Shown here: piece by piece, positions 47 through 5,322 of the stretch | Layout of the letters: each line of letters opens with the position of its first letter | Numbering within the stretch: the first letter of the stretch is position 1 | NCBI RefSeq assembly: GCF_006345805.1 | Contig: NW_021829982.1 | Coordinates: 1 to 5,434 of the forward strand | DNA length: 5,434 nt | Reading direction: 5' to 3' | Source: Octopus sinensis | Lineage: Eukaryota | Program-made: the position numbers and the translations under genes | Notes under the pieces: model-generated | Told to the model about the DNA's origin: nothing | The model's input: only the letters and a program-made list of their open reading frames with translations | Databases searched by the model: none

Positions 47-102
47 TGTGACATGGTTTGCGCGATACCTATGGTTTGCGCGATACCTGACGTGACCTTG
101 AA
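47..102 (+). repeat. Left TIR of element A, containing a perfect 18-bp tandem repeat ATGGTTTGCGCGATACCT (53-70, 71-88)
   Basis: Aligns to the reverse complement of 1267-1323: TGTGACATGG-TTTGCGCGATACcTATGG(9 nt)TACCTGAcGTGACCTTGAA versus TGTGACATGGTTTTGCGCGATACgTATGG(9 nt)TACCTGAaGTGACCTTGAA. Confidence 0.93.
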
Positions 103-464
103 ATGTACAATTATGACATTGATGGGATTAAATTATAAATCTTTTAATTAGACCGCGACTCATTCTTATCATTTAATATTTACTAAATTAGCTAAAGACT
201 CTCTCATTTTGACAAAAAATTATATTTATAGGAATTTAATTTTTAGAAATTAATTTTTTTTGGTGGAAAACCTAAATTTCTTGAATTATTTCTAGCGTGC
301 AAGTATATTTGCAGCAATGTCCTCGTACAAAGGTTATGTAAAGAATAGTTTGGAATATCAAATTTTAAAAGATGCTTTACAGGATAAATTTCCTGAATAT
401 CTTACAAAGCAAAAAAAATATAGACTAGTTAAGAAAATTGAAAATTTTACTGTAATTATGAAAG

Positions 465-489
465 GTATCATACAAATGTAAATGTATAG
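465..489 (+). other. Putative 25-nt spliceosomal intron A1
   Basis: GTATCATACAAATGTAAATGTATAG contains the in-frame TAA. Removing it and restoring one A upstream gives NFTVI(N)ERLYLK, collinear with SFILLNDCLYI in element B. Confidence 0.7.
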
Positions 490-709
490 ATTGTATCTTA
501 AATGTGCGAATTCAGATCACAAGCTAGTGATTTGTCTAGACAATGAACCCGAAATGGAGATCGTTGCTAAAAGTTTGCATGACTTCTCGCATGGAGGAGT
601 TAACAAAATTGAATATGAATGTCGACAACGATATTTCACAGTTAAAAACGAGATTATTCGAAAAGTCATTCGAAACTGTGAAATTTGTAAATTTGCGCGA
701 CCCTTAAAA

Positions 710-733
710 GTTTTAACTTTTTTTAAATCTTAG
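710..733 (+). other. Putative 24-nt intron A2 (phase 0)
   Basis: GTTTTAACTTTTTTTAAATCTTAG. Removal joins RPLK to IGDINNHVFASCPNERFQ in frame and removes the TAG stop. Element B has no such insertion here. Confidence 0.82.
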
Positions 734-870
734 ATTGGAGATATAAATAACCATGTCTTTGCATCTTGCCCAAATGAAAGATTTCAGAGATAGATCTTAT
801 AGATCTGAAAGTTTTTCTACTATAAATAAAAATTTTAAATGGATTTTACGGTCATTGACGTATATAGCAG

Positions 871-895
871 GTTAGTTTTTTTAACATTTTTATAG
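871..895 (+). other. Putative 25-nt intron A3 (phase 2)
   Basis: AG|GTTAGTTTTTTTAACATTTTTATAG|A. Removal gives IDVYSRFAFARPL exactly, matching uninterrupted IDVYSKYGFTRKL in element B. Confidence 0.88.
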
Positions 896-1266
896 ATTTG
901 CATTTGCGAGGCCGCTCTACACTAAGTCCTCAAATGAAGTTTGTGAAAACCTTAGATCATTATTTTTTTTTAAATGGTCCGTGTCAATTCTTCTTCAGTC
1001 CGATAATGGACTGAATTCAAGAATCGTGAAATGACCAATCTATGTGAGGAATTCAATATCAAACGAATTCACGGAAGGCCAAACAATCCCCGCTCACAAG
1101 GGATTGTCGAACGCTCAACCAGTCAATTACAAGAAAATGGCAAAAATGATCGACAATGATAATAAAAAGTGGCTGGAAAAATTAGAAATGCAGACTTAAA
1201 AAATAATTAACAAGTTATTATTCTTTGAAGTTTAATATTAATTACAATATTGACATTAAGTTAAGC

Positions 1267-1323
1267 TTCAAGGTCACTTCAGGTAACCGGTTGCCCATAC
1301 GTATCGCGCAAAACCATGTCACA
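1267..1323 (-). repeat. Right TIR of element A
   Basis: Inverted copy of 47-102 with one indel, two point mismatches and a diverged 9-nt block. Followed by the TSD TAATA. Confidence 0.93.
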
Positions 1324-1805
1324 TAATATCTCGAGACTTTCTAAAATTTTAAAATAAATAGTTGAAACTTTTAATGTTTTGCATTGTGTCGTATACGGGG
1401 TTTTTTAATTAAGTTTTAATAAAACTGTTATTTAGAGTTCCTCTTAACACTAGAAATTGTAATCAGAAAGTATTAAAGATCGTATTAATCATAAAATCCG
1501 AGTCAATACACTGCGGCCGCATAGGGAACAGTATCAAATTGACTTCCAACAATTAGGTTTTGGTTAAGATTGTCTTTCGAAATTGACTTTTTACGTTAGA
1601 ATATCATATCTCAAATTTTAAAAGTTTTGCCGGGTCCATTAATGAGCCGGTGACATTCAATGTTATTAGACGTTTTTAAACTTGTTTCATCAAAAAATTT
1701 GACGATTATTTAATACTTGGGTTGCACAAATTTTGCTAAACTGTTCTTCGAATTGTTGGAATCGTTCATGTTCGGCATTTTCTAAATCAATTTCTTCACC
1801 AATTT

Positions 1806-1830
1806 CTAAATTATGACCAAAAATAAATAC
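1806..1830 (-). other. Putative 25-nt intron B3 (phase 1)
   Basis: G|GTATTTATTTTTGGTCATAATTTAG|AA. Removal continues the frame PFSESR-EIGEEIDLENAEHE. No paralogue alignment is available here. Confidence 0.72.
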
Positions 1831-1911
1831 CTCTTGATTCACTAAAAGGCTATTCTGGAACTATTGCATTAAATCCTGGAATTCCCCTGAATCTGATAAA
1901 GGGAGTTTCAC

Positions 1912-1936
1912 CTATTTTTACAGAATAGTTTAAAAC
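1912..1936 (-). other. Putative 25-nt intron B2 (phase 1)
   Basis: G|GTTTTAAACTATTCTGTAAAAATAG|GT. Removal restores the integrase motif YNLSTHSSTGETPF with no other correction. Confidence 0.9.
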
Positions 1937-2330
1937 CCGTAGAAGAATGAGTAGAGAGGTTATACCAGATAACTGCATCTCCAATACAGTTAATCCACTT
2001 TTTGGTACTATCCTCAGATAACATTTTCGAGATTTTGCGCGTAATCGTTTGGTTGAAGCGCTCAATGATCCCTTGACTCGTGGATTGTTAGGCCTTCCGT
2101 GAATTTGGAGAATGTTGTATTTCCACACAAGTCAGTAAGGTAAGAATTCTTGAACTCTGTCCCATTATCTGTTTGTAGATATAGGACATGGTCCATGCTC
2201 GATAAATATATCTTGAATATTTTTGAAACCTCGAGTCCAGATTTATTTTTAGCTTTCTTGTGAATCCATATTTGCTGTATACATCAATACAAGTTAACAG
2301 CCATGAAAAAGAATCATTGGAACTCGAAAT

Positions 2331-2352
2331 CTAAAATAATGAGAAAAAGCAC
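2331..2352 (-). other. Putative 22-nt intron B1
   Basis: AG|GTGCTTTTTCTCATTATTTTAG|A. Removal (plus one restored T) gives DLKRF(S)SSNDSFSW, collinear with uninterrupted DLKVFSTINKNFKW in element A. Confidence 0.75.
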
Positions 2353-3027
2353 CTTTTAAGATCGATTAAATCCATTTGAAACCTTTCATTTGGTTATTAG
2401 CAAAAACGTGAATTCTGTATCATGGTCTTTAAAGGTGCAGAAAAGCGGCAAATGTCACATTTGATAACAACATCACGGACGATTTCACGTTTAATAAAAA
2501 AATCTTTGCCTACACAATCTCTCAAGTTCATTTTGACAGGAATGGCTAACTTCGTGAATTCCTTGACAAGTCTTCTATTTTTTCATGATCATCAGAAGTA
2601 ATAACTAATTTGTGACTCCCGTTTTCAACACGATATAAAGGCAGTCATTTAATAGTATAAAAGATTTTGACTTGGTCAAAAACCTTCTTTCCTGATATCT
2701 ATTCTTGTCTTTACATCGATCCCTTGGAGAATCGACTTGATTTGATCATATTCATTGTTATTTTTTATATACTTCTTTTGTTTTGGAAAACCAAACGTGA
2801 ACAATCCATAGTATATAGCGTGCGTAATATTAATAAAAATTTGATGAAAAAAAGATATTAACAAATTAATAAATATATTATAATATTTTAAAGTGCCATT
2901 TGTGTCATTATATTCAATAATTTCGAAAAATTTATAAAAATTACAATATGACTAATCAATAATGTGCGCTCGGGGCGTAGTGCGCGTTGTGCATGCGACA
3001 TATTATTACAAATATTACTTATGCTAC

Positions 3028-3756
3028 CTAACCTGAGAATAAATTAATGATAAATTAAAAGTTAGATTAATTAAAATTTTCAATTTACTGGTCTTGGGCC
3101 TCCCTGAACAGCACCATCATCTTTCGTGATCCTCTTGCTATTATGTGTCCTTCCTCAGAGTATTCGTTTTCTGCCACCTCATCATGTCTCCTCTTCATCG
3201 AGTTAGCTCCCCTTTGGTGAGTGTTCCACACTGCATAATCTTTGTTGAGAATCAATGCTTTAGTCATTACGTCTTCAAACCATGTTTATATTCTACGAAC
3301 ATTCCTTCCAACGTCTTCTTTAATGCAATCGTTTGGATGTACGCCAGAACACTGTCTTTAATGCCAATCAAATCCATGTATATTTTAAAATACTTGGAGG
3401 TGATCGCATCCCAGGTAATGACAATCGGAAGTATTTTGACTTTGGCTTTGTAATGATTCTAATTCACTTGCCAGGATATCATATTTATGAAGTTTTTCAA
3501 CTTCAACTGCTTTTAAATTATCCACACACGTCACTCCAATCTCTATTAGCCATATGTGGTTTAATTTTTTGTCGTATAGGAAAATGTCCGGCTTGTTATA
3601 TTGAATTTTTGACTCGGTAGGGATAGTAGTGTCAACTCGTAATTCAGCACGATCATTGGTAATTACGCTTTGGATAGAGTGAGTCTTCAACCTTTTTGAT
3701 TTTTTGAATCCAATTTTCTGCATAGGTGCATGTGTATGCATTTAACAATTTCGTTG
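3028..3756 (-). mobile_element. 5'-truncated non-LTR retrotransposon with restriction-like endonuclease (RLE)
   Basis: Flanked by the direct repeat TACTTATGCTAC at 3016-3027 and 3757-3768. Homology starts abruptly inside the RHN motif at the TSD, the typical product of target-primed reverse transcription with 5' truncation. Confidence 0.92.
3085..3756 (-). pseudogene. C-terminal RLE (PD-(D/E)xK) endonuclease domain of a non-LTR retrotransposon ORF
   Basis: NEIVKCIHMHLC...YNKPDIFLYDKK (KPD at 3594-3586)...LIEIGVT...EKLHKYDILASEL, then after a frameshift AKVKILPIVITWD...AYIQTIALKKTLE. TAA at 3269-3267 overlaps the ATG of the 60-aa ORF 3085-3267, which is probably the frameshifted C-terminal tail. 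Confidence 0.85.
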
Positions 3757-4024
3757 TACTTATGCTACAATAATATTTTATTAGTAAGGTTTATTTAGTA
3801 CATAAGAAAATTGAAAAAATATTTTAATTTAATTTTTAAGGTTCTTTGTAATAGTATTTAAAGCACGTTCCTAACGTATTTAAATGCAAGCAAACTACAA
3901 AAACTCTAGATATTGATTAGAATAAGAATATGATTACTAGGGCGATTTTTTAACATAAAATAAAAATTAAACTTTATTAATCAAAAAACTAAAAAAATTA
4001 CCCCACAAATTTAACTTTATAACT

Positions 4025-4147
4025 TTAATAAAAGGACTAAAGAAAAAAGGTCATTGGCAGATAGTCAGAGTATTGCCTCTGACTATGGCTATGGATATTC
4101 GTTCGGTTAAATACCGGTGCTCACACGGGTCGCCGGTAACCCTTTCT
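4025..4147. mobile_element. 123-bp GC-rich structured insertion with 11-bp TSD (SINE-like or retroposed RNA)
   Basis: ACTTTATAACT is repeated at 4014-4024 and 4148-4158. Perfect 10-bp stem ATAGTCAGAG/CTCTGACTAT (4061-4086) and a second stem TACCGGTG/CGCCGGTA (4112-4138). T-rich 3' end on the - strand. Confidence 0.72.
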
Positions 4148-4189
4148 ACTTTATAACTAAACAATAAATATACTAAAACTGCTTGTTAC

Positions 4190-4797
4190 ACATACAATAC
4201 TTTTCTTAATTGTCTTGTTAAAAATTTCGGTTGGATCATAGAAAACTCTTTATTTAAGAGAAAGTTCTTTCAACCAAGCAAGAGGTCGGCTGAAAATTCG
4301 TGAGTTATAAATACTCGGCAGGAGATATGTGTAAATTAGTTATGTTGAATATGTTCGAAATATCATTTAACTATTTTGGCAGGTAAAACTTGAACATAAA
4401 ATTTTACCTGATTTCATAAGATTTGCGGCATCAGAAATTAACAAAAGGAAATTTCCCCTTTGAAACAAATTATTTCGAAGTACCTCGTCGACTATCTGAG
4501 TAATAATGTTCTTGTTAGGAGCAAATTCTATTGGCGTATTAGATATGTTGTTTCAAGAGAATTTAACAATTAAACATAACAGAAACATAACATATCTTTG
4601 TTTTATCGGTAATTGCAAAAACTTTTTATTCCTACAAAATAAGGAAGATTTTCAAATTTTTGTTGATGTATTATTTTTTGATCAATTCTGATTTGATCGA
4701 CACAGCTTCTAGCTTTCGATAGTGGGGATACTAGCATTAAGCCATGGCATAGATAGAGCCATCATCCTTTTTTGCATACAACTATAAACGAATATTT
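4190..4797 (-). pseudogene. hAT-like transposase remnant (catalytic-domain pieces and C-terminal dimerisation motif)
   Basis: FAITD.T (~4600-4620); NIITQIVDEVLRNN..QRGNFLLLISDAA...SGKIL...FY (~4385-4510); HISPAEYL*LTNFQPTSCLVERTFS*IKSFL*SNRNF (~4220-4332). Many stops, and the central part is missing. Confidence 0.75.
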
Positions 4798-4799
4798 CT

Positions 4800-5185
4800 T
4801 GATGTTCTAACAAATCCGTTAAATATGCAAGTTTGTGCTTATTGAAATGCGTTGGAAATTTTTATAACTCCCAGGTCCATTGACTGACCAAGCCTGTAGT
4901 ATTTCGCGGTATAACATGATTTCAATATTAGAAAAATTTTCTGGTATGTAATGGGAAGGACAGTTATCCAAAATAAGCAAAATTTGTTTTCTCTAATTTT
5001 AGATTCAAATCAAAGTTTATTAGCCAATCTATGAAGATTTTCCCAGTCATCTAAGCAGGCTGGGAGGTATAAAATTTGTGGCCAATTTGAGAATTGGCCA
5101 TTTTGCAGAGTTTTTTCAATTTTGCAGCGGTAAATTGTTACAAATGGCAAATTTGAGAGGTGGCCAATTTGAGAGGGTTGAGTGG
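4800..5185 (-). mobile_element. pogo/Tigger (Tc1/mariner superfamily) fragment nested in the hAT element
   Basis: A*MTGKIFIDWL...ILLILDNCPSH (LDNCPSH at 4971-4951)...NIEI..PRNTTGLVQSMDLGVIK, which are DDE_1 motifs. The end reads TA|CCACTCAACCCTCTCAAATTGGCCA on the - strand. The second TIR is not found. Confidence 0.85.
5078..5185 (-). repeat. pogo terminal region with repeated putative transposase-binding sites (TGGCCAATTTGAGA)
   Basis: Copies at 5079-5092, 5095-5104 (partial), 5145-5160 and 5161-5176. The last two form a 16-bp tandem with one mismatch. All are in the same orientation. Confidence 0.8.
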
Positions 5186-5187
5186 TA

Positions 5188-5322
5188 TTTACAAAATGAC
5201 TGACGAAAATTTACAAAATGTCTTTTCTCACATTAAATATTACACAACAAAGACAACAATATAATACACTATCCTCAAAGATAATCTTTTACTATGGTTT
5301 CGATTTTGCTACCTTAGGCGTA
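5188..5322 (-). pseudogene. N-terminal zinc-finger-like fragment of the hAT-like transposase
   Basis: (ACG)PKVAKSK...FEDSVLYCCLCCVIFNVRK..HFVN. A CxxC lies ~130 bp inside the 5' TIR, in the same orientation as the rest of the remnant. Confidence 0.5.

Follow-up and report, generated by a model that had tools for sequence, protein, structure and literature searches.

Dicyemid-size introns predicted in two Ginger2/Tdd-type transposase genes on a small contig of the Octopus sinensis assembly

Repeats on the contig

The window analysed here, 5,434 nucleotides in length, is the whole of one small contig (NW_021829982.1; C6453) of the 2.72-Gb Octopus sinensis assembly GCF_006345805.1, in which C1–C30 are the chromosome-scale contigs. 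Element 1 occupies positions 47–1323 of the forward strand and was classified as an internally deleted Ginger2/Tdd-type DNA transposon with terminal inverted repeats (TIRs). It measures 1277 bp, compared with ~1850 bp for full copies, because ~570 bp are gone after position 1164, and introns 4–7 with them. By comparison of copies, a 5-bp target-site duplication (TSD), TAATA, was placed at 42–46 and 1324–1328. The left TIR (47–110, forward strand) starts with TGTGA and the right TIR lies at 1260–1323 on the reverse strand; their inner edges are approximate, ~56 bp being well paired in copy L007. A perfect 5-bp TSD was present in 24 of the 26 copies with both ends, and a 4-bp TSD in none of the 26.

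Exons 1–4 of the element 1 transposase gene (317–1164, forward strand) encode an H2C2 zinc finger and a DDE core. Removal of seven introns (26, 23, 26, 23, 23, 24, and 26 nt) from copies L002 and L007 gave a 430-amino acid open frame, the gene spanning bases 272–1735 of the 1851-bp element. Unspliced, the frame stops at 70 amino acids; the full spliced frame was open in 2 of 26 copies. The initial annotation had described integrase-type transposase genes and proposed a check against integrase profiles, and both the anatomy of the elements (TIRs, TSDs, and an H2C2 plus DDE transposase) and the profile searches agreed with it. PF17921 (Integrase_H2C2) matched exon 2 of element 1 at 31.2 bits; rve matched exon 4 (E = 2.7e-7), its 31.2 bits being slightly below the 32.6 cut-off and the domain being split by intron 3. 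A D-x35-E spacing could be read from the 430-amino acid translation, in which no GPY/F or YPYY motif was seen by eye.

Element 2, at 1656–3000 on the reverse strand, belongs to a sister Ginger2/Tdd family. Its left TIR begins with TGTCG at 3000, and the element is cut off at ~1656. A full copy, L033, is 2071 bp long with a TAATA duplication; the termini are TGTCG/TGTCA and the TIR is ~47 bp. The transposase gene runs over 1656–2809 (reverse strand), its start codon being read from the sequence. Both window elements are defective, with 5 frameshifts in the gene of element 1 and 11 in that of element 2, one deletion, one truncation, and many 1-nt indels. The repeat piece that cuts element 2 (1330–1655) has an end starting with TGTCA at 1655 on the reverse strand, possibly a further Ginger-type end, and has further copies on C12605, C8886, C12418, and other contigs. 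Elsewhere, pieces of element 2 broken inside its first intron surround a match to a clade D transposase (clades are described below), in composite repeats (L041, L047–L052, L055–L058, and L060) that sit on C444, C2376, C10313, C12835, and C13365.

A 3′ fragment of a non-LTR retrotransposon (LINE) with a C-terminal endonuclease region lies at 3080–3757 on the reverse strand and served as an internal control. It had been reported as free of introns, which held when compared with a sister copy, L300 (C2292:253660–257342), where a single 726-amino acid open frame crosses the window's LINE stretch. L300, a long frame with a C-terminal endonuclease-like region, may belong to an R4/Dong-like element. 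The best 40 of 181 LINE candidates were all on small contigs. On C10288 (L032, L311), the element 2 flank is as in window 1655–4500 and ~740 bp shorter at the LINE site, which suggests two alleles or duplicates of one locus, of which one has received the LINE insertion and the other has not. Window positions 4150–5250 hold nested pieces of at least two other repeats; one fragment without a Pfam match reads, we presume, like a pogo/DDE_1-type transposase.

Boundaries and conservation of the inserts

Six inserts beginning with GT and ending with TAG had been picked out in the two genes, and all six were found in the window with the places and lengths originally given. Those of element 1, on the forward strand, are intron 1 at 465–489 (25 nt, phase 2, reference position 48), intron 2 at 710–733 (24 nt, phase 0, position 123), and intron 3 at 871–895 (25 nt, phase 2, position 168). 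Those of element 2, on the reverse strand, are at 2331–2352 (22 nt, phase 2, position 148), 1912–1936 (25 nt, phase 1, position 281), and 1806–1830 (25 nt, phase 1, approximately position 309). Their A+T content is 73–84%.

Frame restoration alone cannot fix the ends of such inserts, and an outside protein was therefore used as a guide. Picking introns by the longest open frame was rejected, since other GT–AG pairs were then chosen for introns 1 and 3. The guide, P0001, is a 450-amino acid protein of Dictyocoela muelleri that was found with the largest exon of an intact element 1 copy (55% identity). Spliced alignment of the window DNA to P0001, with a flat intron cost and introns of 15–60 nt allowed, returned 465–489, 710–733, 871–895, 2352–2331, and 1936–1912 exactly. 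Alignment of the window copy ended short of 1830–1806, which came out of the alignment of sister copy L033 instead; when the element 1 protein was the reference, a 31-nt alternative pair was preferred here. Lying in a poorly conserved and weakly aligned linker, this is the least certain of the six predictions.

As a decoy control, all 256 pairs of boundary dinucleotides were scored for each element. GT–AG came first for element 1 with 784.5 (runner-up, 775.5; median, 708; no intron, 689). For element 2, its score of 676 was equalled by one pair alone, GG–TA, its own slide by one base (median, 630.5; no intron, 620.5). Both the homology-guided ends and the decoy scores fit the earlier claim that the inserts behave as spliceosomal introns.

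Other genomic copies had been suggested as a further check. Of 30 element 1 loci, 26 (the window included) were aligned, 4 being excluded for lack of a recognisable right end, and GT..AG was kept at all three forward-strand inserts in 26 of 26. The lengths first reported proved correct for the window. Elsewhere, insert 1 measures 26 nt in every one of the 25 remaining copies, insert 2 measures 22–23 nt, and insert 3 measures 25–27 nt. Read error or decay may therefore have shifted the window's lengths by one nucleotide. A pattern spanning intron 3 matched 49 sites in the genome, every one with a 24–27-nt insert that starts with GT (48 of 49) and ends with AG (49 of 49); no site lacking the insert was found among these matches. 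For element 2, the 22-nt intron at 2331–2352 has GT..AG in 8 of 8 matched copies, its position 148 being common to 14 families, and position 281 (the 1912–1936 intron) is common to 8. Removal of the GT–AG segments restores a conserved frame, and position is kept while the interior diverges, as is characteristic of spliceosomal (U2-type) introns; the inserts are likely to be spliced introns.

A likely seventh intron in the window, of 26 nt, lies in element 2 at 1691–1716 (reverse strand). It has GT..TG ends, with either a noncanonical acceptor or one decayed by a lesion in a master copy. The insert was present in 7 of 7 matched element 2 copies, and once it is taken out the frame of L032 and L033 is open to the C terminus; the C terminus is reached only with GT..TG removal, both of these aligned full-length copies having frameshifts. 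A GT–TG intron is reported in Ginger-1_AC (PMC2836005). This insert, the TIRs and TSDs, introns 4–7 (deleted in the window), the likely parasite origin, and the clade-specific positions discussed below had been left out of the initial annotation.

Source of the DNA

To the extent that it can be read from marker genes, the source of the elements is most likely a dicyemid rather than the octopus, and dicyemids had been among the tiny-intron lineages first named. Tubulin, actin, and Arp genes with tiny introns were found on the element-bearing contigs C7755, C8320, C2292, C8886, C9457, and C12602, and on C7755 the distance between a tiny-intron β-tubulin gene and an element copy is 5 kb. The ATP synthase β gene on C8694, a contig that also carries the family member L174, is intronless and 98% identical to that of Dicyema acuticephalum, in keeping with the description of the dicyemid gene as intronless (PMC2222250); the chromosomal copy has introns of 88–717 nt. 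Two 18S types are present in the assembly. The 1667-nt type has 0 and 2 mismatches to the published dicyemid primers, compared with 7–10 at the other 14 loci, and is located on a contig separate from those with elements. None of the element copies among the matches listed (the best 40 of 287, 40 of 161, and 150 of 3619, plus the 49 intron 3 matches) was on C1–C30.

A comparison with host intron lengths, also proposed at the outset, was made with resident genes on the small contigs. In well-aligned genes, 37 introns were 22–42 nt long, with a median of 27 nt, degenerate donors, and none beginning GTAAGT; with weaker alignments included, 71 introns ranged from 15 to 62 nt. Published figures for dicyemids are a mean of 26.2 nt (PMC2222250), a median of 27 (PMC6543705), 6.2 introns per gene (PMC6736024), and a donor reduced to GTa (PMC13644364).

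With marker genes and tiny introns on the same contigs, the elements are most likely those of a Dicyema whose genome was co-assembled with that of its host. The 5.4-kb window contig, which has repeats only, is likely parasite DNA as well, an assignment that rests on 95–98% identical copies on other contigs. A large share of the Dicyema genome appears to be held in the assembly beside the host chromosomes, in contigs of up to 1.29 Mb; small parasite contigs include C1618 (L091), C8694 (L322), C7755, C2292, C8702, and C1794. Gene sets built on this assembly would mix two animals. Among the resident genes, L061 (C11053) is an intronless divergent actin of 376 amino acids that fits the description of Dicyema actin2 in PMC2222250, the comparison being by description only. 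The tiny-intron actins L084, L115, L077, and L078 have positions 43, 115, and 193 in common, and some also 248 and 309; with such shared positions, it could be tested whether resident dicyemid genes have gained introns.

Intron positions across the family and their origin

To place the two elements among their relatives, 92 related loci were aligned to P0001. Of these, 15 covered the core poorly and were set aside; clustering of the other 77 at 88% identity gave 30 families, a count that degraded copies may inflate. Within the flanks examined, 11 of 30 families showed TIRs with a 5-bp TSD. Intron statistics were restricted to 12 recurrent positions of our choosing, one-off and linker positions being left out. 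At these, 70 family-level introns have a median of 25 nt, and 69 are no longer than 30 nt. None begins GTAAGT, in line with the degenerate donors first noted. Lengths are divisible by three in 29 of 70, and some introns, if retained, leave the frame open (e.g. some 24-nt inserts in sister families). Compared with resident introns, those of the transposons have a slightly lower length (p = 0.004) and a higher A+T fraction (0.79 versus 0.65), so that the match is close, not exact. The earlier inference of a transposon family adapted to a tiny-intron spliceosome was not upheld in that form: intron size is the dicyemid norm (median 25 versus 27 nt in resident genes), with no special adaptation, and in L141, L195, and L203, related families in the same genome, no intron was predicted, so introns are not required.

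Positions are specific to clades. Clade A (9 families, including element 1) has introns at 48, 123, 168 or 182, 236, 394, and 432; clade B (15 families, including element 2) at 148, 281, approximately 309, and 394; clade C at 138; and clade D at 286 and 386. Core positions do not overlap between clade A (48, 123, 168/182, 236) and clade B (148, 281), and position 394, the only one common to the two window elements, is missing from both window copies. At position 148, length varies from 22 to 30 nt across families, with position and phase constant and the interior changing. Interiors are mostly 45–77% identical between sister families (100% in 2 of 21 comparisons), and by eye the 70 introns at different positions have no visible common sequence beyond AT richness. 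The spliced frame gave dN/dS of 0.06–0.17 in 4 of 11 family pairs and 0.78 in 1, dS being saturated in 6; the spliced transposase frame is under purifying selection. Two clade B elements, L159 and L162 (C10228, C10880), have no intron predicted at position 148, likely a case of intron loss in a DNA transposon.

Trees were made with a quick IQ-TREE mixture model (50 rows) and with FastTree (74 rows, 8 long or degraded rows being left out); the AU test was run on 34 rows picked by hand, with a quick LG+G4 tree, and all trees were unrooted. Dictyocoela proteins and one metagenome ORF fall together with clades A and B at 97–99% support. The families of this genome do not form one clade (AU p about 1e-107), and in the FastTree tree they are interleaved with uninterrupted proteins from elsewhere.

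Very probably, then, the six inserts are ordinary spliceosomal introns of dicyemid size, in two Ginger2/Tdd-type transposase genes of a Dicyema co-assembled with its host. An intact element would be transcribed, and up to seven introns of 23–26 nt, marked by little beyond GT, AG, and length, would be removed by the parasite spliceosome. The predicted 430-amino acid H2C2–DDE transposase would then cut at the TGT...ACA ends, and insertion at AT-rich sites would produce the 5-bp flanking duplication; because the element would move as DNA, its introns would be copied with it. Splicing and transposase activity are read here from DNA, and cut-and-paste transposition is assumed from the established biology of Ginger elements (PMC2836005). 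The clade-specific positions most likely represent gains, with some losses, while the elements were resident in dicyemids.

Three other accounts of the inserts and their source were considered. That they are sequencing or decay artefacts, or short unspliced coding insertions, might be suspected from the many 1-nt indels of the window copy and from the open frames left by some 24-nt inserts in sister families. This is very improbable, given inserts that no copy lacks (26 of 26 aligned, 49 of 49 matched) and whose position is shared between families saturated at synonymous sites, truncation of the protein at 70 amino acids on retention, and the rank of GT–AG among the 256 pairs (for element 2, tied with its own slide). 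A somewhat less remote alternative, itself improbable, is that the elements come from the host with its chromosome-scale contigs, or from a microsporidian that was sampled along with it: microsporidia have the closest named proteins, and the window contig has no marker gene. However, no listed match falls on C1–C30, the host introns examined are 88–717 nt long, and copies stand near the tiny-intron β-tubulin on C7755 and with the Dicyema-like ATP synthase on C8694. Derivation from decayed LTR-retrotransposon or proviral integrase genes, to which the "Gag-Pol polyprotein" names of P0001, P0003, and P0008 and the H2C2 and rve domains might point, is scarcely credible and was refuted by the TIR/TSD anatomy. 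The terminal repeats are inverted, not direct, a 1.85-kb unit with one 430-amino acid gene leaves no space for gag or reverse transcriptase, and an RNA intermediate would strip the introns that are fixed in the copies examined.

The direction of intron change is a separate matter. If the introns were ancestral to the transposase lineage, the clade differences would be due to differential loss, and uninterrupted relatives would either have lost theirs or reflect ORF-based databases. Losses are indeed visible (L159 lacks position 148 although its clade carries an intron there, and introns at position 48 are scattered), position 394 occurs in both main clades, protein databases favour uninterrupted ORFs (P0001 is known as a protein only), and loss prevailed in plant CACTA transposases (PMC4158355). 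Ancestral introns are nonetheless unlikely, if a serious contender: clades A and B share no core position, C (138) and D (286) have positions of their own, a nine-intron core would have had to be erased in complementary ways if only loss were at work, and families that are not one clade are interleaved with uninterrupted proteins. Gain inside dicyemids is favoured because the core intron sets of clades A–D are complementary. A fuller scenario, to which we would not give quite an even chance, is that dicyemids were invaded repeatedly by Ginger2/Tdd transposases without introns, plausibly through exchange with microsporidia, and that each lineage gained its own 22–30-nt introns de novo, at a dozen or more new positions. 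Horizontal exchange with microsporidia is plausible: transposon exchange between these and animals has been reported (PMC4202319), as has their parasitism of dicyemids (cited in PMC4150386).

The inserts thus appear real and are largely explained by the biology of their host. Tiny dicyemid introns and Ginger1 introns were known already; what looks new is the radiation of ~30 families, their clade-specific and nearly non-overlapping intron positions, and the intronless families alongside. Family-specific positions, intronless families, and uninterrupted microsporidian relatives together suggest repeated intron gain inside the parasite, and with the clade-specific sets, intron gain can be put to the test in a streamlined parasite. 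An intron there seems to require no more than GT, AG, and length, and multicopy elements of measurable divergence would let gains be ordered; if the gain reading is true, this is a replicated natural experiment on introns still being born at the smallest possible size, in one of the most reduced genomes among animals. ORF-based annotation splits these elements or names their relatives Gag-Pol. No description of intron-bearing dicyemid transposons was found in the literature covered, supplements, Repbase, and subscription papers being outside its scope; words beginning with "transpos" do not occur in the main text of PMC6736024 or PMC6543705.

All features examined match the Ginger2/Tdd type as set out in PMC2836005: TGTNR...YNACA termini, TIRs (~56 and ~47 bp here; ~45–300 bp by definition), AT-rich targets, and an H2C2 plus DDE integrase-like transposase without GPY/F or YPYY. 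No reverse transcriptase or RNase H was found in the unit, where a single gene fills the element. The 5-bp TSD is shared with TDD-4 and TDD-5 of Dictyostelium, whereas metazoan Ginger2 has a 4-bp TSD at RTATAY; here the 5 bp are mostly TAATA/TATTA. The Ginger2/Tdd elements given in that source are also larger (2.75–6.7 kb, against 1.6–2.2 kb), and introns are described there for Ginger1 (1–4, against up to 7 of 22–30 nt here). Ginger1 itself differs in its 4-bp CCGG/CCGT TSD, GPY/F and YPYY motifs, and OTU or Ulp1 domain, none of which was seen in these elements.

The nearest named relatives are microsporidian, from Dictyocoela (55% over the core exon), Pseudoloma, and Nosema, which suggests transposon exchange among parasites. 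Where complete, P0001, P0003, P0008, P0014, and P0015 (Dictyocoela, Pseudoloma, Nosema granulosis) have the same layout of ~430–460 amino acids; they were compared as proteins only, and are deposited as continuous proteins labelled Gag-Pol or Tf2 polyprotein. SCAND3-like and KRBA2-like proteins follow, at 40% over part of the core. The mammalian SCAND3/KRBA2 genes form a clade of GINGER2 and are domesticated single copies, more distant from these multicopy, mobile elements (PMC3575427). A metagenome scan gave distant relatives only (22–43% identity among the best 80 of 259), and the rve and KRBA2-like clusters in the ESM Atlas are a lead only. With the resident introns of dicyemids, finally, those of the transposons share their size (median 25 versus 26–27 nt), a GT donor followed by weak A/T, and a YAG/AAG acceptor (PMC2222250, PMC6543705, PMC6736024, PMC13644364). 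The dicyemid introns described in these sources are from resident genes, whereas those reported here are in mobile elements, are more AT-rich, and stand at positions that are uninterrupted in outside homologues.
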